From the NCBI RefSeq assembly GCF_056746865.1, contig NZ_CM163382.1: a DNA stretch of 64,000 nt, one strand, 5' to 3'. Numbering within the stretch: position 1 is the first letter of the stretch; every line of letters starts with the position of its first letter. Under the pieces are notes generated by a model that was given only the letters and a program-made list of their open reading frames with translations, ran no database searches and was not told the origin of the DNA. Shown piece by piece: positions 12,402 through 62,349 of the stretch. Position numbers and translations under genes: made by a program.

Positions 12402-12637
12402 ATGAATCCGTCTGATGCCATTGAGGCAATTGAAAAACCGCTCTCCTCCCTGCCTTACTCACTTTCCCGTCACATCCTGGAACATCTGCGCAAACTCACC
12501 AGTCACGAACCCGTGCCTGGCATTATGGGTAAAAGCGGGGCCGGTAAATCCTCACTCTGTAATGCGCTGTTTCAGGGGGAGGTCACCCCGGTCAGTGATG
12601 TTCACGCCGGCCCCCGGGAAGTGCAGCGCTTCCGTCT
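12402..12637 (+). pseudogene. YeeP/YfjP-like small GTPase gene, N-terminal part (interrupted by IS21-family element)
   Basis: P-loop GKSGAGKSS, then ...REVQRFRL at the insertion junction. Confidence 0.7.
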
Positions 12638-12839
12638 TGCAAAATGGCATCTGAATCGATCGCAGTTTGGCATTCGAATCGATCATGATTTGGCATCCAT
12701 CTCCGATCACAGTTTGGCATCACAATCGATCACGATTTGGCATGCTTCCGATCATTGATTGGCATCCTGCCAGTCACTCCGGGAATTAACTCTTTTCACC
12801 ACAGTCTCCATTGCCGTGTTTAAACCAGTGGAGACGTCA

Positions 12840-14405
12840 ATGTCCAGAAAGAGAAAATCCAGGAGCACTATGGAAACCTGTTTTAAGATTCTTCAGCTCA
12901 AGTTCGACAAGAAGCTGACTAACCGTTGTATCGGACTGACGTTACACATCAGCGCCTCAACCGTTTTTGAGGTTCTTGCCCGCTTCAAAGCCTCTTCTCT
13001 GTCATGGCCATTACCTGCTGATATATCCCATGACACGCTGGAGAAACTCATTTTTCCGCCCAAAGACACCTTTGCATCAGAGCTTGTAATGCCTGACATG
13101 TTGTACCTCGATACGGAAATGAGAAAACCAGGTGTGACGCGGCAACTGTTGTGGATGGAATACAAGGCACAGGCGGGTAACAAAGCGATGGGATACTCGC
13201 ACTTCTGCCGTTGCTACCGGGAGTGGAAAAAAACGCGACGTCTCTCCATGCGCCAGGAGCATCGTGCCGGCGAAAAGCTTTTTATCGACTTCTGTGGTCC
13301 TACGGTTCCTGTTATTAATCCGGACACCGGTGAGATACGCCGCGTGGCAATCTTCGTGGCCGTAATGGGGGCGTCCAACTATACCTACGTTGAAGCGTGC
13401 GAAGGTCAGGACATGATGTCATGGTTAAATGCCCACAGCCGTTGCCTGACCTTCCTGGGCGGCGTACCGAAGCTGCTCATCCCCGATAACCTCAGAAGCG
13501 CAGTGAAAAAGGCCGATCGATATGAGCCTGTCATCAACGACAGTTATCAGGCACTGGCTGAGCACTATGGCACGGTTATCATCCCGGCCCGACCACGCAA
13601 ACCTAAAGATAAACCAAAAGCAGAAAACGGCGTCCTCATCGTCGAACGATGGCTTCTTGCCCGCATCCGTAATGAAACCTTCCACACGCTCAGGGCGCTG
13701 AATGCGCGCCTTAGGGAGTTACTGACAGACATGAATAACCGGCCAATGAAGGGGTACGGCAATCAAACCCGTGCAGAACGCTTCCGCATACTGGATGCGC
13801 CAGCACTCTCTCCGCTGCCTCTGGCACCTTATGAATACACGGAATACAAAGCTGTGAAGGTTGGCCCTGACTACCACGTTGAATATGCCCGTCACTGGTA
13901 CTCCGTTCCACACGAACTGGTCGGTCAGCGTCTGTCACTGAAGGCGGGGCAGTCGGTGGTACAGCTCTGGCACAAGGGGCAGTGTGTGGCGCAACATCCG
14001 CGCAGCACACATGAATATAAACACACAACCAATCCGCTTCACATGCCAGAGCGCCACCGGCAGCACGGGACATGGACACCGGAACGCCTGATCGAGCAGG
14101 GAAAACGTACGGGCCCGTCCACAGGCCGGGTGGTTGAATCCATGCTGAAGGCAAAACCCCATCCGGAACTGGCTTATCGTGCAGTTCTGGGGCTGCTGGC
14201 ACTTCAGAAAAAATACGGCCCGGAACGGCTGGAAAAGGCCTGTTACGTTGCCCTGCACTATAACGCCCCTGACAGACGCTTTATCGACAATCTGCTGCGT
14301 CACCATCGGGAGAACCTGGAGCTTCCATTATCCCGCCAGGGCGAACAACATCCGGCATATGCTTCAGAGCATGAAAACCTGCGTGGTCCGGGCTACTACC
14401 ACTGA
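12840..14405 (+). CDS. istA: IS21-family transposase IstA
   Basis: Long ORF with GGAG ribosome-binding site before ATG 12840; lies between IS21-type ends, directly upstream of an IstB-like gene. Confidence 0.7.
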   Translation: MSRKRKSRSTMETCFKILQLKFDKKLTNRCIGLTLHISASTVFEVLARFKASSLSWPLPADISHDTLEKLIFPPKDTFASELVMPDMLYLDTEMRKPGVTRQLLWMEYKAQAGNKAMGYSHFCRCYREWKKTRRLSMRQEHRAGEKLFIDFCGPTVPVINPDTGEIRRVAIFVAVMGASNYTYVEACEGQDMMSWLNAHSRCLTFLGGVPKLLIPDNLRSAVKKADRYEPVINDSYQALAEHYGTVIIPARPRKPKDKPKAENGVLIVERWLLARIRNETFHTLRALNARLRELLTDMNNRPMKGYGNQTRAERFRILDAPALSPLPLAPYEYTEYKAVKVGPDYHVEYARHWYSVPHELVGQRLSLKAGQSVVQLWHKGQCVAQHPRSTHEYKHTTNPLHMPERHRQHGTWTPERLIEQGKRTGPSTGRVVESMLKAKPHPELAYRAVLGLLALQKKYGPERLEKACYVALHYNAPDRRFIDNLLRHHRENLELPLSRQGEQHPAYASEHENLRGPGYYH

Positions 14406-14421
14406 CAGAAGGAACAACAGT

Positions 14422-15177
14422 ATGAGTGATAACCTGTTAAACAAACTGACCCAACTGAAACTCCCGGCGATGGCCGGGAGCCTGATACGGCAGCGGGAAA
14501 CGCCTCAGACCTACGACGAACTGTCGTTCGAGGAAAGGCTGACGCTGCTGGTTGATGACGAGCTTCTGAGCAGGGAAAACAGCCGTGTGGCACGGTTGAG
14601 AAAAAATGCCGGCCTGAAATACCAGGCAACACCGGAAGGGCTGCGCTATCCGGCCTCAAGAGGTCTGCGGGCTGAACAGATGAGAGAACTGCTGAACGGC
14701 CACTACATAACCCACAGGAAAAACCTGCTGATAACCGGTCCGACAGGATGTGGCAAGAGCTGGATAGCCAATGCGCTGGGCGAACAGGCATGTCGACAGA
14801 AACACAGCGTCCGGTACTGTAGAACCGGGCGATTACTGGAACAACTGGCTCAGGGACGTGTTGATGGCAGCTGGCTGAAATATCTGAAACAGTTGCAAAA
14901 AATACAGGTTCTAATCCTGGACGATCTGGGGCTGGAACAGTTAAGTAACGCCCAGTGTAATGACCTTCTGGAGCTCATAGAGGATCGTTACGGACAAAGC
15001 AGCACGATAGTGGTAAGCCAGTTCCCGGTAGATAAATGGCATGGTCTGATGGAGAACCCAACAACAGCAGATGCCATCCTGGACAGACTGGTACATAACT
15101 CACACCGGGTGGTCCTTCAGGGAGAGTCACTGAGGAAAAATCCCCCGGTAGTGGAAAGCAGCGAAAAAACGCGTTAA
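14422..15177 (+). CDS. istB: IS21-family helper ATPase IstB
   Basis: Walker A LITGPTGCGKS and Walker B VLILDDLG motifs; ATG 14422 with AGGAA upstream. Confidence 0.85.
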   Translation: MSDNLLNKLTQLKLPAMAGSLIRQRETPQTYDELSFEERLTLLVDDELLSRENSRVARLRKNAGLKYQATPEGLRYPASRGLRAEQMRELLNGHYITHRKNLLITGPTGCGKSWIANALGEQACRQKHSVRYCRTGRLLEQLAQGRVDGSWLKYLKQLQKIQVLILDDLGLEQLSNAQCNDLLELIEDRYGQSSTIVVSQFPVDKWHGLMENPTTADAILDRLVHNSHRVVLQGESLRKNPPVVESSEKTR

Positions 15178-15276
15178 AAAGCGGTAGAAAAAGTTAAGTT
15201 CCCGGTTGATCGAATGGATGCGAATCGCTGATCGGACTTCGATGCCAATCCGTGATCGAATAGAGCGGAATACGCA

Positions 15277-15920
15277 TCCGTCTGAATGGCCATGGTCACA
15301 GCATGGTTATCACTGACCTGCCCGGGGTGGGCGAGAGCCGGGACAGGGATGCAGAGTATGAAGCCCTGTACCGTGACATTCTGCTCGAACTGGACCTGGT
15401 ACTGTGGCTGATTAAAGCCGATGACCGTGCCCTGTCTGTGGATGAGTATTTCTGGCGACACATCCTGCACCGGGGACATCAGCGGGTACTGTTTGTGGTG
15501 ATGCAGGCCGATAAAACGGAGCCCTGCCATGAATGGGATATGGCCGGTATTCAGCCTTCTCCCGCACAGGCACAGAACATTCGCGAAAAAACGGAGGCGG
15601 TATTCCGTCTGTTCCGGCCCGTACATCGGGTTGTTGCCGTATCGGCCCGCACCGGCTGGGAACTGGATACGCTGGTCAGTGCGCTCATGACAGCACTTCC
15701 CGACCATGCCGCCAGTCCCCTGATGACCCGCCTGCAGGACGAGCTGCGCACGGAGTCTGTCCGGTCTCAGGCCCGTGAACAGTTTACCGGTGCGGTGGAC
15801 CGGATATTTGACACGGCGGAGAGCGTCTGCATTGCCTCTGTTGCACGCACGGTTCTGCGCGCCGTCCGTGACTCGGTGGTCTCTGTTGCCCGCGCGGTAT
15901 GGAACTGGATTTTCTTCTGA
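15277..15920 (+). pseudogene. YeeP/YfjP-like small GTPase gene, C-terminal part
   Basis: Continues the split GTPase: G3 motif DLPGVGES, then LVLWLIKADDR and VLFVVMQADK. Confidence 0.7.
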
Positions 15921-16040
15921 ACCCGGTGGTGATGTACCAGGCTGTTGTTACAGATTTTTAACTCCATGAAAACACTATGCAAACGCAGCCATACCCGGGT
16001 TGTCCCCTTGCGTTGTGTTTCTCAAGTTAATAGAATACAT

Positions 16041-16077
16041 CGATCGTTACTATCATATCGATCGTTATAAACGATCG
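16041..16077 (+). promoter_or_regulatory. cluster of three GATC (Dam) sites embedded in repeated CGATCGTT motifs, 60 bp upstream of the dynamin-like gene
   Basis: GATC at 16060-16063 and 16073-16076, with a third at about 16042; each inside a cgatcg palindrome (catcgatcgttact...atcgatcgttataaacgatcgttt). Confidence 0.5.
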
Positions 16078-16137
16078 TTTGTAGTAAATGACCTCCTCCG
16101 TGGTTGTCATGAAAATGCGTCTTAGGAAGGTTAAATA

Positions 16138-18534
16138 ATGCACGAAAAGAACATCGCCCTGCTTTGTGATGAAGCCGACCGACTTTTGCAACTGAACATT
16201 AATCTGCTCCGGCAAATGGTTGAGGAGCCAGATGTGTTATCTGACAGTAAGAACGAAAACAGACTGCTTTTTGATAAACAGAAAGCACTGAAAAGAATTG
16301 AGGAGCTGGAGGGCGAACAAATCAAAACCGCCCGCAGGGAGATGGTGCTGGCTGTTGTCGGCACGATGAAAGCAGGCAAATCAACCACCATCAACGCCAT
16401 TGTGGGGCAGGAAATTCTGCCTAACCGTAACCGCCCCATGACCTCTGTACCGACGCTCATCCGCCACGTTCCCGGAAAAACTGAGCCGGTTCTCCATCTG
16501 GAACATATTCAGCCTGTCCGCAATTTATTAATCACACTGCAGGAAAAACTCGCCACCCCGGCAGGACAGCAGGTCGCACAGACCCTGCAGCAAACCGGGG
16601 ATACCCGCGAACTGCTGGATATTCTGACGGATGATGGCTGGCTCAAAAATGAATACCACGGGGAGGAGGAAATCTTTACCGGACTGGCATCGTTAAACGA
16701 TCTGGTTCGTCTTGCTGCGGCAATGGGGACTGAATTTCCTTTTGATGAATACGCAGAAGTGCAGAAACTGCCGGTGATCGACGTGGAATTCAGCCATCTG
16801 GTGGGGATGGATGCATGCCAGGGAACACTCACACTGCTGGATACCCCCGGCCCTAATGAGGCCGGACAACCGCAGATGGAAGTGATGATGCGGGATCAAC
16901 TGCAGAAAGCCTCTGCGGTTCTGGCTGTGATGGATTACACCCAGATGAACTCAAAAGCGGATGAAGACGTCCGTAAAGAGCTTAATGCCATTGCTGACGT
17001 ATCAGCCGGCCGCCTGTTTGTACTGGTCAATAAATTTGATGAGAAAGACCGCAATGGCGATGGGGCAGATGCCGTACGCCAGAAAGTTCCGGCAATGCTG
17101 AACAGCGATGTGCTGCCCGCCTCCCGCGTTTATCCCGGATCCTCACGCCAGGCATACCTGGCTAACCGTGCGCTTCATGAGTTACGGAAAAACGGAACCC
17201 TTCCTGTTGATGAAGCCTGGGTCGATGATTTTATCAGAGGTGCCTTCGGTTGCATGAAAAAAGAATACGTCTGTAAAGACAGTGAACTGGCAACTGAAGG
17301 GGCGACAGACCTGTGGGAAGGCTCACTTATCGATCAACTGATAACGGAAGTCATACAGAGCTCACATTCCAGAGCTGCGGCACTGGCGGTTGACTCTGCC
17401 GCCGCAAAACTGATGCAGAATGCAGAAAATATCAGTGAATACCTGTTGTTACGCCATCAGGGGCTACAGCAAAGCATTCAGTCACTGCAGTCGCATATCA
17501 CCAGCCTGCTTGCGGATATCCGGGAAATCGCGGACTGTCAGGAGCAGATGACCACTGATGTCAGAATGGCCATGGAGGAGATCGATACTAAAACCCGGGA
17601 ATTACTGACGGGGGTCTGCACCTCACTGGAAGAGGAGCTGAATGACTATTTCAGAAGCGGTAAACGCAAAGAACAGCAAATGCTGGAGGAAGAAGACGCA
17701 GAACAACGAAGGTCTCAGTCCGGATTATGGGGGAAAATTTCTCAATGGTCCGGTATCAACAACCAGGGCCGGGAGGATTACAGGAAACGAGATTTTGCCC
17801 CGGACAGCCCCGAAATAAAATTCAGTGATCGCAGGGAAGCCCTTGAACTGATGACGCAAATCGAATCGACCGTGACCAGCCTGCACCGTGAGGCTGAAGC
17901 ACAGTTCCGGCCTGAGCTGGAGAAAATCGTCAGCGGGATTGAAACAGGTTTTCGTGGCACGGCCCTGTACGCCACAGAAAACATTGCCGGTCGCATCAAT
18001 GCCCGCCTGGAGGATGAGGGCTTTACCGTAAAAATCAGTTTTCCGGCAGTCAGCCAGTTACAGACCCGGCTCGCGGTAAAAATAAATCTGAGTGCGCTTA
18101 TGGAGGAAAGAACGGAGACCGTCACCCGTCGCCGTCGGCAGAGTGGCGTATGGGGAACCGTTTGTCGATGGTTTGGCACCAGTGACCTGGGCTGGGAAAA
18201 CTATGACGAGGATGTGAGTCGCAGCGTGATCAATATCAACAAGGTCAGAGAGGAAGTTATGTCACTGACCCGGGCATATTTCGGGGAGCTGCAGGCATCC
18301 ATTGAGCAGGATATTAACCAGCCCGTCCGCCAGGAAATCGATGCCTTTTTCTGCGCATTCAGGGAGAAAGTTGAACAACTGCGTAACACGCTGATTCAGA
18401 GCTCTGAAGATCATAAACGCGATCAGCAGGCGCAGGAACGGCTTACCGGGCGACTTCAGGCATTAAATGAAAGGGTTCCTGAGCTCATTACTGACAGTAA
18501 GGCGCTGAGGGAAGAGCTGGAGACAATGCTGTGA
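16138..18534 (+). CDS. dynamin-like GTPase, CrfC/YjdA-like (798 aa)
   Basis: G1 P-loop GTMKAGKST, G2 Thr in MTSVPT, G3 DTPG, G4 NKFD, in dynamin order, followed by a long helical region. N-terminal block MVLAVVGTMKAGKSTTINAIVGQEILPNRNRPMT closely matches recalled E. coli CrfC. AGGAAGG ribosome-binding site. Confidence 0.85.
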   Translation: MHEKNIALLCDEADRLLQLNINLLRQMVEEPDVLSDSKNENRLLFDKQKALKRIEELEGEQIKTARREMVLAVVGTMKAGKSTTINAIVGQEILPNRNRPMTSVPTLIRHVPGKTEPVLHLEHIQPVRNLLITLQEKLATPAGQQVAQTLQQTGDTRELLDILTDDGWLKNEYHGEEEIFTGLASLNDLVRLAAAMGTEFPFDEYAEVQKLPVIDVEFSHLVGMDACQGTLTLLDTPGPNEAGQPQMEVMMRDQLQKASAVLAVMDYTQMNSKADEDVRKELNAIADVSAGRLFVLVNKFDEKDRNGDGADAVRQKVPAMLNSDVLPASRVYPGSSRQAYLANRALHELRKNGTLPVDEAWVDDFIRGAFGCMKKEYVCKDSELATEGATDLWEGSLIDQLITEVIQSSHSRAAALAVDSAAAKLMQNAENISEYLLLRHQGLQQSIQSLQSHITSLLADIREIADCQEQMTTDVRMAMEEIDTKTRELLTGVCTSLEEELNDYFRSGKRKEQQMLEEEDAEQRRSQSGLWGKISQWSGINNQGREDYRKRDFAPDSPEIKFSDRREALELMTQIESTVTSLHREAEAQFRPELEKIVSGIETGFRGTALYATENIAGRINARLEDEGFTVKISFPAVSQLQTRLAVKINLSALMEERTETVTRRRRQSGVWGTVCRWFGTSDLGWENYDEDVSRSVININKVREEVMSLTRAYFGELQASIEQDINQPVRQEIDAFFCAFREKVEQLRNTLIQSSEDHKRDQQAQERLTGRLQALNERVPELITDSKALREELETML

Positions 18535-19436
18535 CTTCACCATTTATTCAACAAATTGCTGATAACCGGGTATGTCAGGTACTCACCTGTCTTCCTGAAA
18601 AATTTGTGGTTGATTTCGCAAACGGAATCGATGTTGCACAGGAGCATATCCGCACGGCCGGAGAGCGCACGTTCTTCCGGCGTTTAAAAGAGGGGCTGAC
18701 CGGCGAAGGCGCTGCACGGCAGAATGCCATCAATGCGTCGCTTGCACAGGGCGTTGAGGCGTCCCTGCGCTGGCTGACGGAGATGACAACGTCACTTGCC
18801 ACCACAAACTACGCGATTACCCGGGTAAACGACAGGGTCAGTTCACTGGTCAGTGATACAGCCAGGCTGGCGCATTATTCCGCAGATACGCGGGAGCAGT
18901 TACTCACCCTGGCCGATCAGGTTCACCATAAACTGAATCATCTTGAAGAAAAACTCCACCGTGTTGACCAGGTTCAGCGGGCGCAGTTACATCTTGAGCA
19001 GATATTCTCATGGTGGAGCGCCGGGCGATATGCGTCATTTTCCCCTGCCGGACGTTGTTATGTGGCACTTGAAGAGCTTCGCTGGGGCGCGTTTGGTGAT
19101 GTGATACGTCAGAGCGAAACAGGCCAGGTTAACCAGCTACTGGATATTCTCAGACATAAAGCATTAACGCAGATGGCACAGGAGAGTGGCGGTAGTGCAA
19201 CCGTGCGTCTGAACACTCTGGACTGGCTTGGTGGTCAGGGCCGGGAGCAGGCAGATAACGAGTGGCATGACGCGATTAACTGGCTGGGAGACTGGTGCAG
19301 TGAAGAGCAGCATCCGGTGATCTGGTCAACCACGCAGGCTGCAGAACACTTACCGGTTCGCATGCCTCGCCTCTGCTCTGCAGAACGCCTCTCTGAAAGT
19401 ATGGTCGATGAAATATTTCAGAAGGGGGCTGCATGA
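18531..19436 (+). CDS. YjcZ-like partner protein of the dynamin-like GTPase (301 aa)
   Basis: GTG start overlaps the upstream stop (ctGTGA); GGAG 10 bp upstream. Size and position mirror the crfC-yjcZ pair; family assignment not verified. Confidence 0.55.
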   Translation: MTSPFIQQIADNRVCQVLTCLPEKFVVDFANGIDVAQEHIRTAGERTFFRRLKEGLTGEGAARQNAINASLAQGVEASLRWLTEMTTSLATTNYAITRVNDRVSSLVSDTARLAHYSADTREQLLTLADQVHHKLNHLEEKLHRVDQVQRAQLHLEQIFSWWSAGRYASFSPAGRCYVALEELRWGAFGDVIRQSETGQVNQLLDILRHKALTQMAQESGGSATVRLNTLDWLGGQGREQADNEWHDAINWLGDWCSEEQHPVIWSTTQAAEHLPVRMPRLCSAERLSESMVDEIFQKGAA

Positions 19437-20503
19437 GTACAGAAATGAAAACGGGGCTGGTGCTGTCCGGTGGCGGGGCGGTGGGCGCTTATCAGGCGGG
19501 AGTGGTTAAGGCACTGGCAGAGTGTGGTACACAGATCAGCATGGTTTCAGGGGCCAGCATTGGCGCATTCAATGGTGCCATTATCGCGGCCTCTCCCGAT
19601 CTGTCAGAAGCTGCCGTACGCCTGGAGGCGCTCTGGGATCATCTGGGGAATAATCAGGTGCTGTCGGTAAACAGATTGGTTTACTTTTCATTGCTGAAAA
19701 AATTGTTCCAGGCAATGAACCTCTGCCAGATCCCCGGACGTGCAGGAGCACTGCTTACGACGCTTCTTCGCCATATATCGACAATCAACGGGTTTGACAA
19801 TCTGATGGCTCAGCCGTTGTTGTCAGATGAGCCCCTGACAGCGCTGATGGATCATTATCTTGATACTGATGCTCTGGCAGACGGGCTACCGCTGTATGTG
19901 TCGCTGTACCCCACAGAAGGGGGCATGCAGGATATTATTGACTGCATTCGTGCTGAACTGGGTGTCGGAACCACGAAAAACGCCGTTTTTCAGCATATCC
20001 AGAGCCTGCCCCGCGGACAGCAGAAAGAGGCTCTGCTTGCGTCAGCCGCGCTGCCCCTGCTGTTCCGTCCCCGTGAGGTTCAGGGGACAATGTTCGGTGA
20101 TGGTGGTATGGGAGGATGGCGAAATATGCAGGGAAATACCCCTGTGACGCCTCTGGTCGATGCCGGATGCAATATGGTGATTGTGACGCATCTGAGTGAG
20201 GGTTCTTTATGGGATCGCCAGGCTTTTCCGGACACCACAATCCTTGAGATCCGTCCCCGGAAAAGGCTGAAATATGCAGGTGATGGTGGCAACAGCGGCG
20301 GTCTGCTCAGTTTTACATCGGCACATACCGACGCCTGGCGTCAGCAGGGCTATGAAGACACGATGCTGGCGATGGAGCATATCCGGAAACCGCTGGCAGC
20401 ACGTCAGGCACTGACCCGGTCAGAGGCGGTATTGCAGAAAAGCCTGGATATAACGGAAGAGGCAGATTTGGCACTGAGAAACGCGATGGCCCGGATTAAA
20501 TAA
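19433..20503 (+). CDS. patatin-like phospholipase (356 aa)
   Basis: Oxyanion motif LSGGGAVGAYQAG, nucleophile elbow G-A-S-I-G (Ser42, nt 19556-19558), catalytic Asp in FGDGG (Asp223, nt 20099-20101). ATG overlaps the upstream stop (gcATGA). Confidence 0.85.
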   Translation: MSTEMKTGLVLSGGGAVGAYQAGVVKALAECGTQISMVSGASIGAFNGAIIAASPDLSEAAVRLEALWDHLGNNQVLSVNRLVYFSLLKKLFQAMNLCQIPGRAGALLTTLLRHISTINGFDNLMAQPLLSDEPLTALMDHYLDTDALADGLPLYVSLYPTEGGMQDIIDCIRAELGVGTTKNAVFQHIQSLPRGQQKEALLASAALPLLFRPREVQGTMFGDGGMGGWRNMQGNTPVTPLVDAGCNMVIVTHLSEGSLWDRQAFPDTTILEIRPRKRLKYAGDGGNSGGLLSFTSAHTDAWRQQGYEDTMLAMEHIRKPLAARQALTRSEAVLQKSLDITEEADLALRNAMARIK

Positions 20504-20836
20504 AGACGCCCCAAAGAAACGCCACCGCCTGTGGTGGTGTTTTTCCTGTCTGGTGTTATTGAAAATATTTTCATATATATATTACCTGAGAGAAAGTTTT
20601 ACCCCTCACCTGTCAATTCACTCACTGGAAATTTAATTATGAAATTACCTGTAAAGTTATTAATGAGCCTTATATCTCTGGTCAGCGTTATTGCACGTGC
20701 CGGGGAATATAAAAATTACAGCCGGGATGAAATAAAATACTGGCGATATACATCATACAAGGGGGGGAAACTTCCGGAAGGTTTCACTGATGAGAAATTT
20801 TCCAGCGCCATTTACAACGGAAGAATATTTACAATG

Positions 20837-21322
20837 AAACGTTTACATACCCTTATGTTATTTCTGGCGGTTCTGTTCACGGGCTTTAACTTTAACGCAG
20901 AAGCGGCTACCGTAAAACAAGCTCTTAGTTGTAACCCGGAAGCCTGGGCTGAACAACCTGGAGCGTGTCCATCAACGTACGAGTTGTACGAAGGTGACGC
21001 TACCTACAAAGCCGCTATCGACAAAGCATTAAAACCGGTCGGACTGAGCGGCATGTTCGGTAAAGGCGGCTATATGGATGGCCCTGGTGGAGGTATCACG
21101 CCAGTAAACATTAACGGTACAGTCTGGTTCCAGGGCGACGGTTGCAAAGCCAATACCTGCGGCTGGGACTTTATCGTAACACTCTATAACCCAAAAACCC
21201 ATGAAGTTGTTGGCTACCGTTACTTTGGTTTAGATGACCCGGCCTACCTGGTTTGGTTCGGTGAAATTGGCGTGCATGAATTCGCGTATCTGGTGAAAAA
21301 CTACGTAGCTGCGGTTAACTAA
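20837..21322 (+). CDS. secreted Ivy-family-like protein (loop CKANTC in place of Ivy CKPHDC)
   Basis: Signal peptide MKRLHTLMLFLAVLFTGFNFNAEA. Mature protein resembles E. coli Ivy in KAA...KGG and CKxxxCG blocks. ORF extends upstream to 20531/20639 with a second signal-like segment, so start is uncertain. AT-rich DNA. Confidence 0.45.
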   Translation, partial: KRLHTLMLFLAVLFTGFNFNAEAATVKQALSCNPEAWAEQPGACPSTYELYEGDATYKAAIDKALKPVGLSGMFGKGGYMDGPGGGITPVNINGTVWFQGDGCKANTCGWDFIVTLYNPKTHEVVGYRYFGLDDPAYLVWFGEIGVHEFAYLVKNYVAAVN

Positions 21323-21337
21323 TTTAAGGAGTCTATC

Positions 21338-21748
21338 ATGAAAACTTTTATCAAAACTTTACTCGTTGCTGTAACTATTCTGTTCTCTGTCTTCGCTACT
21401 GCGAAACAAGTAAAACTGCCAAATAACATCAAATACGTTAATACTACAGAAGCGTTTTCCTGTACCGAAATTGACGGTATGAATTGCCAGACAAAGAATC
21501 AGTTCAACTATAAAGATAACAGCTATGTTTTCGTGCTTGAACGTGGTGGTGCCTGGTGCTACGACTACACTGTCTCGGTAGTTAACCTGAAAACCGGGAA
21601 AGCACAAATGATTGAATACGGGGACAATCAACTGTGCTCAGGTAGCAACAAACCGTTCTTCGAAATCAAAAATGGCGTACCGACGGTAGGAGTCATCGAC
21701 ACATCCGGAAAACCTGTCGTTGTAGCCCAGGACAAACTTAAAATCTAA
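21338..21748 (+). CDS. small secreted Cys-containing protein, unknown function
   Basis: Signal peptide MKTFIKTLLVAVTILFSVFATA; GGAG before the ATG; 15 bp after the previous gene. Confidence 0.5.
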   Translation: MKTFIKTLLVAVTILFSVFATAKQVKLPNNIKYVNTTEAFSCTEIDGMNCQTKNQFNYKDNSYVFVLERGGAWCYDYTVSVVNLKTGKAQMIEYGDNQLCSGSNKPFFEIKNGVPTVGVIDTSGKPVVVAQDKLKI

Positions 21749-56550: not shown

Positions 56551-57670
56551 ACATAATCTCAATTATCTTTTTTGCCCAATTGTCCCAATGCAATATTTTA
56601 TTATATCTAACTCTTGCGTTTTGGGAGTAGTTTTGATAAGTCTCTACGGAGCTAATTATTTTATGAATTGCATTTCCAAAGTGCTTATAGTCTGACGAGT
56701 CTTTAATTAATATCCCCGTCCTTTCGTTGATAACTATAGAACTAATTCCACCTGTATCTGTGGCGACAACTGGCAATCCATAAGCTGCAGCTTCACAAAA
56801 TACCATTCCGTAACATTCAGCAATGGTTGGTAAAAGAAGTATATCAGCGTTAGATAACACATCGATGAATTTCTGATATTCTTCAACGTTATTTTTATTT
56901 ATTTTATCAATTAATTCAACCCAAGCAGGTAAAATCTCTTGATTCGGAGTACATCCACAAATTTTTAGTCTAACATCGATCCCATATAACTCTCTTACAT
57001 ATTCAATTGCTTTCAATGCTGTTTTACCACCTTTTCTTTCCCAATCGACCCCCAAGAAAAGACAAGTATAACTAATCTTTTGAATTATAGTTTTATTAGC
57101 AAAATGAATATCTTCAAATAAATTAGCCCCCCATGGTATTTCAACTAATTTATCAGAATCCAATCTGTAATAGTCCTTGCAAAAATCCATTGCCCATTTA
57201 GATGGGAAAGATACGACTGTTGCTTTTTCAATAGCCTTGCGTTCGATTAAACTTGCATCCTCATCATTTATAATTGTTTTTTTATTTAAATTCGGATAAT
57301 AGTTTTTTAATTGATCATATGTTGTATCCGATAGATATATTATTGGTATATTTGTTTCTAAAAAAGCAATTTGTGAAGAACCTGCAGGTGCAATAATAAA
57401 ATCCAAACCATCAATTTTTTTTAATTTTCTCTCAAATATTCTACCGTAATACTTGGAAAGCAACTTCGAACGACTATAATCATATTCCTTTCCGAAACAC
57501 CTTAATATTAATTTATATGCTTTTAACATGTATACCATATAGCTATTTACCGGTCCTAATATTTCAATGGAAATATTTCTCTTCGATAATGCCTTTAGCA
57601 TATAATAAGGTGTGCCAGACCAACTGGATGTAGATAGTGGATCATAAGCAGATAAAAAAGCCACTTTCAT
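56522..57670 (-). CDS. GT4-family glycosyltransferase
   Basis: 382-aa ORF with the C-terminal region typical of retaining GT4 enzymes. Confidence 0.7.
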   Translation of the reverse strand: MKVAFLSAYDPLSTSSWSGTPYYMLKALSKRNISIEILGPVNSYMVYMLKAYKLILRCFGKEYDYSRSKLLSKYYGRIFERKLKKIDGLDFIIAPAGSSQIAFLETNIPIIYLSDTTYDQLKNYYPNLNKKTIINDEDASLIERKAIEKATVVSFPSKWAMDFCKDYYRLDSDKLVEIPWGANLFEDIHFANKTIIQKISYTCLFLGVDWERKGGKTALKAIEYVRELYGIDVRLKICGCTPNQEILPAWVELIDKINKNNVEEYQKFIDVLSNADILLLPTIAECYGMVFCEAAAYGLPVVATDTGGISSIVINERTGILIKDSSDYKHFGNAIHKIISSVETYQNYSQNARVRYNKILHWDNWAKKIIEIMYEHKNRRTK

Positions 57671-57736
57671 TAAATACCCTTTAATAACATATCAAACTAT
57701 ACATTTATTTAATAACACCATCATTAAATGCATATT

Positions 57737-58702
57737 CTAATGGCATTTGCTACCTTTATTTCGTTTGAAGTTAAACATAACATTCAAACATCTTTTCATC
57801 TTATTAAACTCACCTCTTCTAGCACGGTTAAATGCTACAACAAAGAGTGACAACCATACCGTCCAATAATATTGTGGATAAAACTTTTCTGTAATGACCA
57901 GCCTATTTTTTATTGAACAAAGGTCAGCTATCATACTCTTTCCCCCATCAGTACTTGCACCTATCTTATGATAAACCAAACTATCTGAGCAAATACCTAA
58001 TTTAAAGTTCTTTGCTTTTGCTCTGAGGCAAATATCTAACTCTTCATAGTATAAAAAATATTCTTCATTCATCAATCCAACTGTTTCCAAACATTCTCTA
58101 GAGAAAAACATTGATGCGCCAATTATATAATCTATATTATTGCTAATGACTTCATCATCATATTTTTTGGAAACTAATCTTCCCATCTCATAATTTTTTG
58201 TAGTGCATAACCATCTGTAATGTACCCCACCCAGTCCTTGCTGCATCTCTCTATCGGTAAAATAGACTAAACGAGAACCGCAAATCCCTATATTTTTATC
58301 TGAATCACATTTACTAATTAAATGAGTTAAAGCCTCTTTATCCACTTCAGTATCATTATTCAGAACCCAGACGTATTTCATATCCTCCTGATTAAGTGCG
58401 AGCTCTATTCCAATGTTATTACCACTTGCGTACCCATTATTTTTCGGAGATTGTATTAATATGATTTTATCGTTTTCTAATGTTTGATATTTACTTCTAT
58501 CCTCATACTTCACCTCAATGAAACTTTTACCAGTAATATATAATGCATTAAGATTTTCTTTTATAGAATCATATGAGTTATCCGTAGAACAGTTATCAAC
58601 AACGATAATTTTATAATCATCATAATTTAAATTCATTAAACTTTTAACACAATTAATGGTATCTATAGCCCCATTCCAATTTAACACTACAATATATATC
58701 AT
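57737..58702 (-). CDS. GT2-family glycosyltransferase
   Basis: MIYIVVLNWNGAIDTINCVKSL...VDNCSTDNS, the GT2 N-terminal signature. Confidence 0.8.
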   Translation of the reverse strand: MIYIVVLNWNGAIDTINCVKSLMNLNYDDYKIIVVDNCSTDNSYDSIKENLNALYITGKSFIEVKYEDRSKYQTLENDKIILIQSPKNNGYASGNNIGIELALNQEDMKYVWVLNNDTEVDKEALTHLISKCDSDKNIGICGSRLVYFTDREMQQGLGGVHYRWLCTTKNYEMGRLVSKKYDDEVISNNIDYIIGASMFFSRECLETVGLMNEEYFLYYEELDICLRAKAKNFKLGICSDSLVYHKIGASTDGGKSMIADLCSIKNRLVITEKFYPQYYWTVWLSLFVVAFNRARRGEFNKMKRCLNVMFNFKRNKGSKCH

Positions 58703-59979
58703 CAGGCTACCCTTTTTTTCATAAGATTATTACAACGATAACTCATATAAAAAAGCATCAAAAAATCAATTATCACTCGAATTGTCCATAACCACGCCAC
58801 ACCAATAACCCCACATTCCTTTGAAATTATATATAACATTATCAAATAAGGAATAAATTCCATCATATGGATGTATGCAGTGTATTTTGCTTTTCCAAAT
58901 GCCTGTATATTGGCAAAAGAGATTTGTGAATAACAGTTAAAGATATACCCTATAAGCATAATCCGTAATATTTCGACTGAAATCCCTGCATACTCAGCCC
59001 CCATCCACAATGTTAAAATAAACTTTGCGTAGTAATATATAAATAAAACCAAAGGCAATACAATGACAGTCATTAATATATACGCTTTTTTTTGTTCTGC
59101 ATATGACGCTGTAAAACTACTTGCATGGCTTAATTTTGGAAAAACAGCTTTCCCAAGAGAGCCTGGAACTATTCCAAGCCTAGTTACCAGCTCATTAGGG
59201 ACTGTATAGAATGATATTTTTGATGCTCCCTGGATATGAGATAGAATAAATCTATCCATACTCGCTAATATAGGAGATATTATGTTACTTATAGTTACCC
59301 ACCCGCCATATCTAAATAACCGTTTTAAAACAGTTATTGAAAAAAATGAAATATCGATAGTTATTCTTTTCCTGCTCATAATGTAGCTTAACCACAAGCA
59401 TATAACTCTTGCAATAGCTACACCAATAATTGCAGAAAAAAGTGTTTGATTAATTAAAACAAATAATGCAGGCAACCCTGCAATTAAAGAATTCCCTAAA
59501 CTTTTTTGTATATTTAGGATTCCAAAATATTCCCGCCCCTCAAGCTCTGCTAATAGTATTTGCGTGACTAAGAATACAGGTATCAGAGATGATAATAATA
59601 TTAGAGACTTTATCGCATCGACGTAGTATATTGGTGACATATTTAACAGTTCAATAATATGGTCTTTAAGCAGAAACACTCCCCCGCCTCCGATACCCCC
59701 TAAAAATACCACAGCAATAATAGAAGTTACTATTATCGTATTACAATCGTCCAGTCTGTTTTTTAGTAATGCTATTTCGCGTACTACAGCTCTTGTTAAC
59801 CCAGCATCAAATATACTAGCATACCCTATAAAAATCATTGATAAAGTATACAAACCAAATAGTTCTACACCAATTTCCCTTGCAATTAATCCAAACGCTG
59901 GGATTGCAATTAATGTTGGTATAAAGTAGCCCGCAACATTCCATATACTATGTTTTAAGAGAGACATTTCAATACTCAC
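58702..59979 (-). CDS. wzx: O-antigen flippase Wzx
   Basis: 425-aa, 12-transmembrane-type protein immediately after rmlC. Confidence 0.8.
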   Translation of the reverse strand: MSIEMSLLKHSIWNVAGYFIPTLIAIPAFGLIAREIGVELFGLYTLSMIFIGYASIFDAGLTRAVVREIALLKNRLDDCNTIIVTSIIAVVFLGGIGGGGVFLLKDHIIELLNMSPIYYVDAIKSLILLSSLIPVFLVTQILLAELEGREYFGILNIQKSLGNSLIAGLPALFVLINQTLFSAIIGVAIARVICLWLSYIMSRKRITIDISFFSITVLKRLFRYGGWVTISNIISPILASMDRFILSHIQGASKISFYTVPNELVTRLGIVPGSLGKAVFPKLSHASSFTASYAEQKKAYILMTVIVLPLVLFIYYYAKFILTLWMGAEYAGISVEILRIMLIGYIFNCYSQISFANIQAFGKAKYTAYIHMMEFIPYLIMLYIISKECGVIGVAWLWTIRVIIDFLMLFYMSYRCNNLMKKRVA

Positions 59980-60511
59980 TTAGTTCTAATTTTTCCCCAT
60001 TTGCATCCTTATCAGACAGAGTAATCAGTGCTGTCCTTGGCCATTTAATATTAAGCAAGGGGTCATTCCAGATAATATTTCGTTCATGTGATGGAGCATA
60101 ATATTGATTCGTTTTATATAAAACTTCTGCTAAATCACTAAGTACCAAAAATCCATGAGCAAATCCTTCAGGTATCCACAACTGACGCTTGTTCTCAGCA
60201 GACAAATTCACCCCAACCCATTTCCCAAATGTACCTGACGATTTACGAATATCAACTGCTACATCAAAAACCTCACCGACCACACAACGAACTAATTTAC
60301 CTTGAGCATAAGGTTCCAGCTGATAGTGCAATCCGCGTAATACACCCTTAATTGATTTAGAATGGTTATCCTGAACAAATTCAACCTTACGCCCTACAGC
60401 CTCTTCGAAAACTTTCTGATTAAAGCTTTCCATAAAAAAACCGCGCTCATCACCAAAAACTTCCGGTTCCAAAATTAATACATCAGGAATTTCAGTTTTA
60501 ATTACATTCAT
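59969..60511 (-). CDS. rmlC: dTDP-4-dehydrorhamnose 3,5-epimerase
   Basis: MNVIKTEIPDVLILEPEVFGDERGFFMESF... Confidence 0.95.
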   Translation of the reverse strand: MNVIKTEIPDVLILEPEVFGDERGFFMESFNQKVFEEAVGRKVEFVQDNHSKSIKGVLRGLHYQLEPYAQGKLVRCVVGEVFDVAVDIRKSSGTFGKWVGVNLSAENKRQLWIPEGFAHGFLVLSDLAEVLYKTNQYYAPSHERNIIWNDPLLNIKWPRTALITLSDKDANGEKLELSEY

Positions 60512-60513
60512 TT

Positions 60514-61392
60514 TTAGTAACCTTTAATCATTTTTAGCAGATACTGACCATAAGCATTTTTCTTTAGTGGTTCTGCTAATACATTAACCTGCTCAGCGTC
60601 AATAAAGCCTTTACGATAAGCAATTTCTTCCGGGCAAGATACCTTTAAACCTTGTCGCTCTTCAATTGTTGCAATGAAGTTACTTGCTTCAATCAGACTT
60701 TGATGTGTCCCCGTGTCTAACCATGCATAACCACGGCCCATCATGGCAACAGATAAACGCCCCTGTTCCATATAGACACGGTTAATATCGGTAATTTCCA
60801 GTTCACCACGGGCAGAAGGCTTAAGGTTTTTCGCCATTTCCACAACGTCGTTATCATAGAAATAAAGCCCGGTTACCGCATAATTACTTTTTGGTTGTAA
60901 CGGTTTTTCTTCCAAGCTGATTGCAGTACCGTTTTTATCAAACTCAACGACACCATAGCGTTCAGGATCATTTACGTGATAGGCAAATACCGTTGCACCA
61001 CTTTCTTTGTTAACAGCGGCATCCATTAACCTCGGCAGATCGTGACCGTAAAAGATATTATCACCAAGAATCAAAGCACAATCATCACCACCAATAAACT
61101 CTTCACCGATAATAAATGCCTGCGCAAGCCCATCTGGAGTCAGTTGCACTTTGTACTGAAGATTTAGCCCCCACTGGCTACCGTCACCCAGCAGTTGTTG
61201 AAAACGAGGAGTATCCTGTGGCGTACTAATAATCAAAATATCGCGAATACCCGCCAACATCAGTGTAGAGAGCGGGTAATAGATCATCGGTTTATCATAA
61301 ATCGGTAATAGCTGTTTACTGACTGCCATAGTCACAGGATAAAGACGAGTACCAGAACCACCCGCTAAAATAATACCCTTACGCGTTTTCAT
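60514..61392 (-). CDS. rmlA: glucose-1-phosphate thymidylyltransferase
   Basis: [60 protein letters not shown]... Confidence 0.97.
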
Positions 61393-61449
61393 TTCATCAT
61401 TCCTTTTAATTCATCTTGCTCCATCATCACGAACAAGATGCAAAAACTA

Positions 61450-62349
61450 TTAAATTGCTGTAGTCGTAAATAATTCGTTGAGCATGCGTTTCACACCAAC
61501 CTGCCAGTCAGGCAAGACAAGCGCAAAATTCTGCCGAAATTTTTCTGTATTAAGTCGAGAGTTATGTGGACGACAAGCTGGTGTAGGATAGGCTGTCGTT
61601 GGTACCGCATTGAGTTTGTTGAGTGCGAGGGGAATATCTGCTTTGCGCGCCTCTTCAAAAACCAGCGCAGCATAATCGTACCAGGTCGTGGTACCACTGG
61701 CTACCAGATGGTACAAGCCTGCGACATCCGGTTTATTCAGTGCGACACGAATGGCATGTGCTGTACAATCGGCCAGAAGCTCAGCACCCGTTGGTGCGCC
61801 AAATTGATCGTTTATCACAGCCAACTCTTCGCGTTCTTTTGCCAGACGCAACATCGTTTTGGCAAAATTATTTCCTTTACCAGCGTATACCCAGCTGGTA
61901 CGGAAAATAAGATGCTTTGCGCAATGTTCTTGTAACGCTTTTTCCCCAGCTAGCTTAGTTTCACCGTAAACATTTAGCGGCGCTGTTGCATCCGTTTCCA
62001 GCCATGGCCTGTCACCACTGCCAGGGAAAACATAATCGGTGGAGTAGTGTATAACCCAAGCTCCAACTTCATTTGCTGCTTTCGCAATCGCTTCGACACT
62101 TGTTGCGTTAAGTAATTGTGCAAACTCCGGTTCTGATTCTGCTTTGTCTACTGCGGTGTGAGCGGCTGCGTTGACAATAATATCAGGCCGAATGCTTCTT
62201 ACGGTTTCAGCTACACCTTCAGGATTACTAAAATCACCACAGTAATCAGTGGAGTGAACATCAAGAGCAATCAAATTACCCAAAGGTGCCAGAGCACGCT
62301 GTAGTTCCCAACCTACCTGCCCTGTTTTGCCGAATAGGAGGATATTCAT
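61450..62349 (-). CDS. rmlD: dTDP-4-dehydrorhamnose reductase
   Basis: [33 protein letters not shown]... Confidence 0.95.
   Translation of the reverse strand: MNILLFGKTGQVGWELQRALAPLGNLIALDVHSTDYCGDFSNPEGVAETVRSIRPDIIVNAAAHTAVDKAESEPEFAQLLNATSVEAIAKAANEVGAWVIHYSTDYVFPGSGDRPWLETDATAPLNVYGETKLAGEKALQEHCAKHLIFRTSWVYAGKGNNFAKTMLRLAKEREELAVINDQFGAPTGAELLADCTAHAIRVALNKPDVAGLYHLVASGTTTWYDYAALVFEEARKADIPLALNKLNAVPTTAYPTPACRPHNSRLNTEKFRQNFALVLPDWQVGVKRMLNELFTTTAI

Follow-up and report, generated by a model that had tools for sequence, protein, structure and literature searches.

In Escherichia coli K-12, the dynamin-like GTPase RdcA (CrfC, YjdA) and its partner RdcB (YjcZ) dock on the membrane MASE1 domain of the diguanylate cyclase DgcE and thereby activate the enzyme (PMC6510439). 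The hydrolysis-dead RdcA variant T103D is inactive while the nucleotide-free variant K82A is fully active (PMC6510439), which indicates that GTP acts as an inhibitor of RdcA/RdcB; a drop in GTP as cells enter stationary phase may be what the pair senses (PMC6510439). RdcA has been reported to be soluble, and the K-12 pair forms part of the flagellar regulon (PMC6510439). The present analysis concerns a relative of that pair, a three-gene operon at positions 16138-20503 of a 64,000-nucleotide (nt) stretch of DNA (contig NZ_CM163382.1 of RefSeq assembly GCF_056746865.1; the whole stretch is referred to below as the window). The operon specifies a dynamin-like GTPase, a YjcZ/RdcB-type partner and a patatin-like phospholipase, a composition that is hardly in doubt, and is referred to here as the trio. 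An earlier sequence-only reading had put it forward as an undescribed membrane-targeting defence module; the RdcA/RdcB mechanism, that of a GTP-inhibited activator of a membrane enzyme, had been missed in that reading, as had a region with three GATC sites upstream of the operon.

The gene encoding the GTPase (16138-18534, + strand) starts with ATG and specifies a protein of 798 amino acids (aa). The YjcZ/RdcB-family partner gene (18531-19436, + strand; 301 aa) starts with a GTG that overlaps the GTPase stop codon, and the patatin-like phospholipase gene (19433-20503, + strand; 356 aa) with an ATG, both gene junctions being 4-nt overlaps according to the list of open reading frames (ORFs) of the window. 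A terminator-like GC-rich hairpin followed by a run of T (20520-20546, + strand) is found 17 nt past the patatin stop codon; as a consensus match only, it is the probable end of the operon. When motifs were located by script, the GTPase showed, in order, GTMKAGKST at residues 75-83 (G1, including K81), MTSVPT at residue 101 (G2, Thr 102), DTPG at 235-238 (G3) and NKFD at 298-301 (G4), all of them invariant in 38 homologues. The lipase contains GGGAVG at residues 13-18, GASIG at 40-44 and DGG at 223-225; its oxyanion loop (G13-G15), nucleophile (S42) and D223-G224 were invariant in 22 homologues with identities down to 41%. The Pfam domains Dynamin_N (GTPase residues 71-299, E 1.6e-17), YjcZ (PF13990; partner residues 26-296, E 4.7e-70, covering model positions 1-272 of 272) and Patatin (PF01734; lipase residues 9-239, E 7.4e-24) were recognized, and as profile matches all three lie far above chance level. 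The ORFs, overlaps and motifs reported in the sequence-only reading, its codon positions for K81, S42 and D223, and its identification of a dynamin-like GTPase and a patatin were thereby borne out.

The values of dN/dS (the ratio of non-synonymous to synonymous substitution rates) for the three genes, measured against the E. albertii and Pectobacterium orthologues, were 0.09-0.34, indicating purifying selection on all three. As judged by sequence comparison, the three genes were found to be intact and translationally coupled, with invariant active sites in the GTPase and the lipase. Neither a signal peptide nor a membrane-spanning hydrophobic segment was found in any of the three proteins; the lipase is predicted to be cytoplasmic, and the three proteins as a set cytoplasmic or peripheral. 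The lipase bears a C-terminal extension of ∼115 aa past the patatin domain, and the closest solved patatins (PlpD, VipD and ExoU) align to its N-terminal ∼65 residues only. The predicted structure of the YjcZ-like partner is all-helical and confident (predicted local distance difference test, pLDDT, 79.4; predicted template-modelling score, pTM, 0.81). The GTPase is a large protein with a helical bundle or stalk on its G domain, and its overall fold matches those of SynDLP, mitofusins, IniA, BDLP and LeoA.

The GTPase is 33% identical to K-12 RdcA over 744 residues, and the partner 30% identical to RdcB over 281 residues; together with the full-length YjcZ domain, these values uphold the description of the two proteins as CrfC-like and YjcZ-like. 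When compared with the NCBIfam CrfC equivalog model (NF007368), the GTPase scored 556 bits over its full length, the cut-off being 1146; this score and the 33% identity make it a paralogue of RdcA rather than an orthologue. The trio and RdcA/RdcB share the two protein families, the gene order, the overlapping stop and start codons and identical G1-G4 motifs, and probably also a logic in which a dynamin-like GTPase and its partner switch another enzyme. They differ in that the trio includes an obligatory third gene, that of the patatin, for which the K-12 operon has no counterpart. RdcA and RdcB work in trans on DgcE and are members of the FlhDC/FliA-dependent flagellar regulon, whereas the trio resides on mobile DNA, preceded by an agn43-type switch or, in other genera, by WYL regulators; the region upstream of the window operon is agn43-like, unlike that of K-12 rdcA. 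Finally, RdcA lacks an additional loop of variable sequence and a polybasic, Trp-containing hairpin, both present in the GTPases of the trio.

The co-inheritance of the three genes was analysed by scanning 100,044 genomes, each representing a different species, with the YjcZ-family alignment as seed, and comparing the ORFs of the loci obtained by BLAST. This rendered 79 loci, which fell into two clean groups. All 33 loci of the first group contained the GTPase, YjcZ and patatin genes in that order, mostly overlapping or abutting. They were found in Gammaproteobacteria (E. albertii, Pantoea, Erwinia, Serratia, Budvicia, Pseudomonas, Allochromatium, Thiodictyon, Thiorhodospira, Marinospirillum, Pontibacterium and gamma proteobacterium HdN1), in Betaproteobacteria (Macromonas, Aquaspirillum, Paenacidovorax, Gallionella and Yanghanlia) and in a few metagenome bins; independent look-ups showed the trio to be present likewise in P. 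fluorescens, V. vulnificus and Pectobacterium. The second group, of 46 loci, was formed exclusively by Enterobacteriaceae (Citrobacter, Enterobacter, Kosakonia, Leclercia, Lelliottia, Phytobacter and others) bearing the RdcA/RdcB pair, and in every one of them a patatin gene was absent within 8 kb. The YjcZ family is small: an exhaustive profile search of 1.84 billion representatives yielded 504 clusters when members were grouped at 50% identity. In the four distant members examined, the YjcZ-family gene was in each case followed by a patatin gene. The view of the three genes as one unit, taken in the sequence-only reading, was upheld. One of these distant members, on a metagenome contig beside parE/parC (locus L091, 7001-9630), is a 532-aa protein in which an N-terminal DUF3944-containing region precedes YjcZ; the patatin gene follows and there is no dynamin gene upstream, so that in this lineage another domain may stand in place of the GTPase. 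The YjcZ-patatin link is the tightest within the trio. The trio is strictly co-inherited as one unit, in a fixed order, across Gamma- and Betaproteobacteria, and the patatin-less RdcA/RdcB pair is a taxonomically narrow exception. The idea that the GTPase-YjcZ pair might be a sensor with swappable effectors was discarded, since every member examined outside the Enterobacteriaceae core has a downstream patatin gene, the DUF3944 lineage being the sole variation encountered.

In a midpoint-rooted neighbour-joining tree of the GTPases, built with no outgroup or support values, the RdcA clade lay inside the diversity of the trio, adjoining the trio GTPases of Budvicia and Serratia. The tree and the distribution of the two groups suggest that RdcA/RdcB arose from a trio that lost its lipase, the trio being, on these sequence comparisons, the likely ancestor of the pair. 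If true, this would explain from where RdcA/RdcB (CrfC), the main role of which has been a matter of dispute, arose in evolution. The same data bear on the opposite view, in which the GTPase and its partner would be a second RdcA/RdcB copy regulating DgcE (and with it cyclic di-GMP and biofilm formation), the lipase being an unrelated passenger. The full-length match to Pfam YjcZ, the similarity to the CrfC model and G motifs identical to those of RdcA would fit this, as would the name given in RefSeq to the partner ('diguanylate cyclase regulator RdcB family protein', the other two products being a 'dynamin family protein' and a 'patatin-like phospholipase family protein'). Nevertheless, the identities are only 33% and 30%, the score against the CrfC equivalog model does not reach half of the cut-off, and the lipase, which is translationally coupled, is never absent in the clade (33 of 33 loci plus the four distant members). 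Moreover, the trio clade extends to Pseudomonas, Vibrio, purple sulfur bacteria and Betaproteobacteria while the patatin-less form is restricted to Enterobacteriaceae (46 of 46), RdcA/RdcB is nested in the diversity of the trio in the midpoint-rooted tree, and the K-12 pair is part of the flagellar regulon while the window operon has a different upstream region. A duplicated DgcE regulator is on these grounds very improbable.

The trio is no rarity: the 4.7-kb stretch containing it was present at ≥80% coverage in 2443 of 5426 complete E. coli genomes (∼45%), O157:H7 and B2 strains included, with up to five copies in each. The family was also found on 44 plasmids, among them conjugative IncFII plasmids of Klebsiella, Enterobacter and E. 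coli that carry copies flanked by insertion sequences (IS). In one case, a conjugative IncFII plasmid of K. pneumoniae (locus L095, 6773-10991), a 62%-identical trio lies between IS1 and IS30; this allele is common to plasmids of Klebsiella, Enterobacter and E. coli, and in the K. pneumoniae copy the GTPase gene is seemingly truncated at its 5′-end by IS1.

The trio has appeared in the literature before. An RNA-seq study published in 2026 (PMC12922286) found the operon of strain MP1 to be strongly differentially expressed and termed it a "putative dynamin phage defense system"; its authors noted ∼30% identity to RdcA/RdcB, found no link between dynamins and phospholipases in the literature, proposed a population-level phage defence, and reported five co-upregulated genes on one island (PMC12922286). 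A 2026 genomics paper on O118 lists the trio genes as 'membrane modelling' island genes, and the trio is not mentioned in the main text of the DefensePredictor preprint. The word 'undescribed' used in the sequence-only reading was therefore too strong, given the RefSeq annotation of the genes in ∼45% of complete E. coli genomes and their being flagged in PMC12922286; it stands in the sense that no functional study was found. What is new here is the co-inheritance of the three genes, the likely derivation of RdcA/RdcB from them, the clade-specific features of the putative GTPase tip and the agn43-type switch.

Public databases give 18531-19436 and 19433-20503 names such as 'chemotaxis protein', 'ferredoxin reductase', 'dGTPase', 'crfC' and 'rssA', which look like propagated misannotations. 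Mentions of 'crfC' in a table of a urinary tract infection pan-genome and in a study of olaquindox resistance were set aside as annotation by-products, and the very high counts of crfC and rssA 'mutations' in a resistance study of ATCC 25922 may reflect mis-mapping between paralogous island copies.

The GTPases of the trio clade have an extra loop of 31-54 residues at the position of window residues 527-552, where those of the RdcA clade have only 0-18 residues. They also keep a polybasic, Trp-rich hairpin (RRRRxSGVWGTVCxWFxTxDWGWE, residues 663-690), in the RdcA counterpart of which the basic residues and the first Trp-Gly are gone. The loop and the hairpin could form a membrane-binding tip retained by the trio and lost by the soluble RdcA; when the extra loop was inspected as a possible amphipathic membrane helix, its hydrophobic moment and net charge were not distinctive. 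The GTPase alleles of E. coli (window 16138-18534 versus L088 7011-9395, from O157:H7) are 91.7% identical, most of the differences falling within residues 361-400 and 521-560; for the partner and lipase alleles the same comparison gave 99.7-99.9% identity. The operon is thus a mosaic, in that its GTPase alleles have diverged while the other two genes are near-identical. The pattern of the GTPase alleles points to mosaic recombination, or to a hypervariable or unconstrained loop at the predicted stalk tip.

These features bear on the possibility that the trio serves membrane maintenance or remodelling. The GTPase would then bind the stressed or damaged inner membrane as Bacillus DynA does, and the lipase would locally remodel, or clear away, damaged phospholipid (repair, vesicles or delayed lysis), any effect on phages being secondary. 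The resemblance of the GTPase to membrane-active dynamin-like proteins (DLPs) such as SynDLP, mitofusins, IniA, BDLP and LeoA would be expected under this hypothesis, as would a hairpin and loop that the soluble RdcA clade lacks or keeps only in degenerate form, the cytoplasmic or peripheral nature of all three proteins, and the stable housekeeping neighbourhoods in which some lineages keep the trio. However, most loci lie on islands or plasmids or beside integrases and IS elements, and their flanks are never conserved, a pattern that housekeeping functions seldom show; the family has few members (504 clusters) and occurs in only ∼45% of E. coli genomes, and RdcA itself has been reported to be soluble. 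Membrane upkeep as the primary role is accordingly considered unlikely.

Expression of the phase-variable adhesin gene agn43 is governed by GATC sites that overlap a single OxyR operator: Dam methylation blocks OxyR binding and gives a heritable ON state, while OxyR bound to unmethylated sites gives the OFF state (PMC3764049, PMC2909390). A region homologous to that of agn43 was detected at 16020-16080 (+ strand) of the window. It contains three Dam sites (GATC at 16042-16045, 16060-16063 and 16073-16076), located 65-96 nt upstream of the GTPase start within a repeated ATCGATCGTTA element; in the whole 64-kb window, three GATC sites come together within 40 bp at only three places. The block shared with the K-12 yeeP-isrC-flu intergenic region and with the region upstream of O157:H7 cah reads TTAATAGAATA..CGATC..TATCGATCGTT..CGATCG, its GATC sites being 18/19 and 13 nt apart, and 60-bp block alignments placed all three GATC sites in register with those of K-12 flu (agn43) and O157:H7 cah. 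The homology of 16020-16080 to the agn43 region and the register of its three GATC sites indicate that the operon is probably phase-variable. On this sequence evidence, the Escherichia operon would be under an OxyR/Dam phase-variation switch with heritable ON and OFF states. A total of 1978 E. coli genomes contained the switch along with the 5′-end of the GTPase gene. The GATC sites also precede the trio in E. albertii, and are absent upstream of it in other genera. A scan of positions 15-22 kb with Rfam revealed no RNA family, and no IsrC-like RNA.

The likeness to the agn43 and cah switches extends to the island slot, which in all cases lies downstream of a YeeP-type GTPase gene. The arrangements differ in that the region in the window directly precedes the GTPase-partner-lipase operon and not an autotransporter adhesin gene, and in that its leader past the third GATC is shorter. 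In E. coli O157:H7 Gim1-1 (L088, 1494-11364), the order is island GTPase, agn43-type switch, an IS-disrupted Ag43/Cah autotransporter gene and, 110 nt downstream, the trio; from its sequence, the window arrangement looks like that of O157:H7 minus the adhesin gene. An agn43-type switch implies heritable colony-to-colony differences in expression, a matter of consequence for screens and RNA-seq comparisons of such islands. In the work on strain MP1 the operon differed strongly and constitutively between two strain lineages (PMC12922286), an indirect hint of switching. The 'induction' described there may alternatively be read as a clonal ON/OFF phase difference between those lineages, and for agn43 itself the misreading of such a difference is on record (PMC3764049). 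The switch could also explain why functional screens have perhaps missed the trio.

A further possibility is that the lipase is a toxin serving the mobile element (in addiction or exclusion, with the GTPase and its partner as antidote or controller), or else a fitness or virulence factor co-regulated with Ag43 on the islands of E. coli. In Enterobacterales the trio is always on mobile DNA beside CbtA/CbeA toxin-antitoxin genes, and in O157:H7 it lies just downstream of Ag43/Cah behind the agn43-type switch, which in the window is fused to it directly. Truncated patatin variants are common among E. coli protein clusters, as expected of a costly gene, and mosaicism is seen in the GTPase alleles, in contrast to the near-identity of the partner and lipase genes. 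Outside Escherichia, however, no link to Ag43 or to a GATC switch was seen; three large proteins, one of them a 90-kDa GTPase, exceed the needs of a simple toxin-antitoxin pair; and the lipase lacks the secretion signal that an exported virulence role would call for. A toxin or fitness factor of this kind appears quite unlikely.

Patatin enzymes are established suicide effectors of cyclic-oligonucleotide-based antiphage signalling systems (CBASS), in which CapV is released by a sensor, and VipD is a patatin activated through the binding of a GTPase. By analogy, CapV and VipD are mechanistic precedents for the lipase of the trio. The trio lipase shares with CapV, VipD and ExoU the catalytic Ser-Asp dyad and the glycine-rich oxyanion loop, but the similarity is confined to its first ∼65 residues. 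It scored 18.3 bits in the NCBIfam CBASS_lipase model, the cut-off of which is 200, and 19.8 bits in the PADLOC phospholipase effector model, in this case through its N-terminal 62 residues only (the glycine loop). Unlike CBASS, the trio operon contains no gene for a CD-NTase (cGAS/DncV-like nucleotidyltransferase) cyclase, and unlike the toxins VipD and ExoU its lipase is not secreted. The sole dynamin-type match in PADLOC was a non-significant one to LeoBC (E 8.6e-5, 19.8 bits), over ∼60 residues (29-89), and there was no match to LeoA. Eleos/LeoABC ('Dynamins') and Bacillus DynA differ from the trio: they are made up of at least two dynamin-like proteins and lack both a YjcZ partner and a lipase; DLPs of the YjdA type have been noted as an exception to tandem DLP pairing (PMC4159319).

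Clustering of all the neighbours of the trio outside Escherichia showed that only the three genes themselves are common to the loci, their flanks varying, so that the trio behaves as a self-contained mobile module. Integrases and transposases flank trio loci as well. WYL regulators accompany many defence systems, and regulators of the HTH-WYL-WCX (HTH, helix-turn-helix) or BrxR type were found at most ∼2 kb upstream in roughly ten loci. The P. fluorescens locus includes BrxR/WYL, an IetA-like ATPase, SIR2 and an integrase; in V. vulnificus a WYL regulator is directly upstream of the trio and bacteriophage exclusion (BREX) genes are nearby; the locus of Pantoea eucrina also contains BREX genes, and in Pectobacterium the trio lies in a CbtA/CbeA island. 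Methyltransferase genes are neighbours in E. albertii (type III) and P. putida (type I), and further neighbours include BrxC, a DRT-like (defence-associated) reverse transcriptase, a GajB/NERD-like helicase, mad3 and a DpdF/BrxH-like helicase. The defence context claimed in the sequence-only reading therefore stood in part: defence-type and mobile neighbours do occur in other genera, while there are none of the defence type beside the trio in the window island, and some distant homologues have housekeeping flanks.

Taken together, these observations are consistent with a mobile, GTPase-gated phospholipase module whose most likely role would be in genetic conflict, as in abortive infection; as a whole, this reading is given a little less than an even chance. 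By homology to RdcA/RdcB, the RdcA-type GTPase and the YjcZ/RdcB-type partner would constitute a sensor or switch, the nucleotide state of which sets the activity of an output enzyme. The output would be the cis-encoded, cytoplasmic patatin-like lipase, which would hydrolyse inner-membrane phospholipids. The precedent is provided by RdcA, the GTP-bound form of which is inactive while the nucleotide-free form docks on a membrane enzyme and activates it (PMC6510439). The genomic context suggests a conflict function, the leading candidate being phage defence of the abortive-infection type, or else a response of mobile elements that kills or permeabilizes the cell; in the E. coli island, transcription would moreover be turned ON and OFF stochastically by the agn43-type Dam/OxyR switch fused to the operon. 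That the GTPase controls the lipase is, by analogy with RdcA, somewhat favoured, while a defence role for the trio stands at close to an even call without quite reaching it. A more elaborate version, in which the trio would be a phase-variable, nucleotide-sensing suicide or defence system (the GTP state, or a phage cue, triggering the phospholipase) and RdcA/RdcB a domesticated, lipase-less remnant rewired to DgcE, is tentative and on the improbable side. If a GTPase-gated lipase does operate in this way, it would represent a new sensor-effector logic in bacterial conflict, in which a dynamin-like switch is joined to a membrane-destroying enzyme, and lipase adaptor would become a testable role for the YjcZ family, for which no fold relative is known. 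To judge from its RdcA counterpart K82A, the K81A change proposed for the trio GTPase may not be a null mutation.

Several points weigh against a GTPase-gated conflict module. The gating by GTP is transferred by analogy from a paralogue of only 33% identity, the target of which, DgcE, is unrelated to the lipase, and the direction of control might be activation, inhibition or even an action of the lipase on the GTPase. Comparison of the three proteins with the PADLOC v2 (2023) models gave no system-level match (as the sequence-only reading had anticipated, no named system was hit, the only signals being those to LeoBC and to the N-terminal loop of the CBASS lipase), and the PHROGs gave no match at all; NCBIfam likewise rendered no system-level match. 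The YjcZ family was sought in 50,697 phage records and not found. A search of the PDB for an informative structural or sequence relative of the YjcZ-like partner yielded none, which leaves its fold without a functional clue, and a full-text literature search retrieved no functional study or phenotype of the trio. A strong defence-type neighbour was present in at least 9 of the 33 loci, a count that is suggestive only, since 30 large neighbours were examined and no formal background was available. In at least two distant lineages the module lies among housekeeping genes (parC/parE; folP/glmM), and PADLOC recognized no defence gene among ten other proteins of the window island.

The island itself is collinear with, and 99.98% identical to, that of an annotated E. 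coli chromosome, where a CP4-44-type island lies between cobUST and yeeA/sbmC. The order in the window is a split YeeP-type GTPase gene, a 217-nt spacer, the trio, two signal-peptide genes, DUF932, antirestriction, yeeS, yeeT and cbeA/cbtA; the island context described earlier (IS element, antirestriction and CbtA/CbeA toxin-antitoxin genes) is thus present. The equivalent slot in K-12 is occupied by the adhesin gene flu (Ag43) and yeeR. The 3′ part of the YeeP/YkfA/YfjP-type island GTPase gene is found at 15273-15920 (+ strand). The gene is split by the insertion of an IS21-family element with istA/istB-like ORFs (12638-15272), the flanks of which (12402-12637 and 15273-15920) are the two parts of the gene. 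The YeeP-type GTPase gene is part of the island backbone, outside the module; a YeeP-related GTPase was present near the trio in only 5 of 37 loci. In the 99.98%-identical reference chromosome, a copy of IS100 lies ∼330 nt deeper in the YeeP-type gene than does the IS21-family element of the window, the differing sites indicating either independent insertions or an element that has moved.

Two small genes for signal-peptide proteins of 227 aa (20639-21322, + strand) and 136 aa (21338-21748, + strand) lie 3′ of the operon hairpin. The second matches phrog_8968, the function of which is not known, and neither protein gave a match to NCBIfam or PADLOC profiles. They were considered as members of the system and rejected, as the O157:H7 arrangement lacks them and no conservation was seen beyond Escherichia. 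In Escherichia they are possibly co-transcribed with the trio, their membership of it being doubtful, and could correspond to the fourth and fifth of the co-regulated genes in strain MP1. Far from the operon, positions 50000-62000 of the window show a GC content of 0.30-0.36 and a strongly negative GC skew; since the his operon lies just upstream in the collinear reference, this segment is probably the O-antigen (rfb) cluster.

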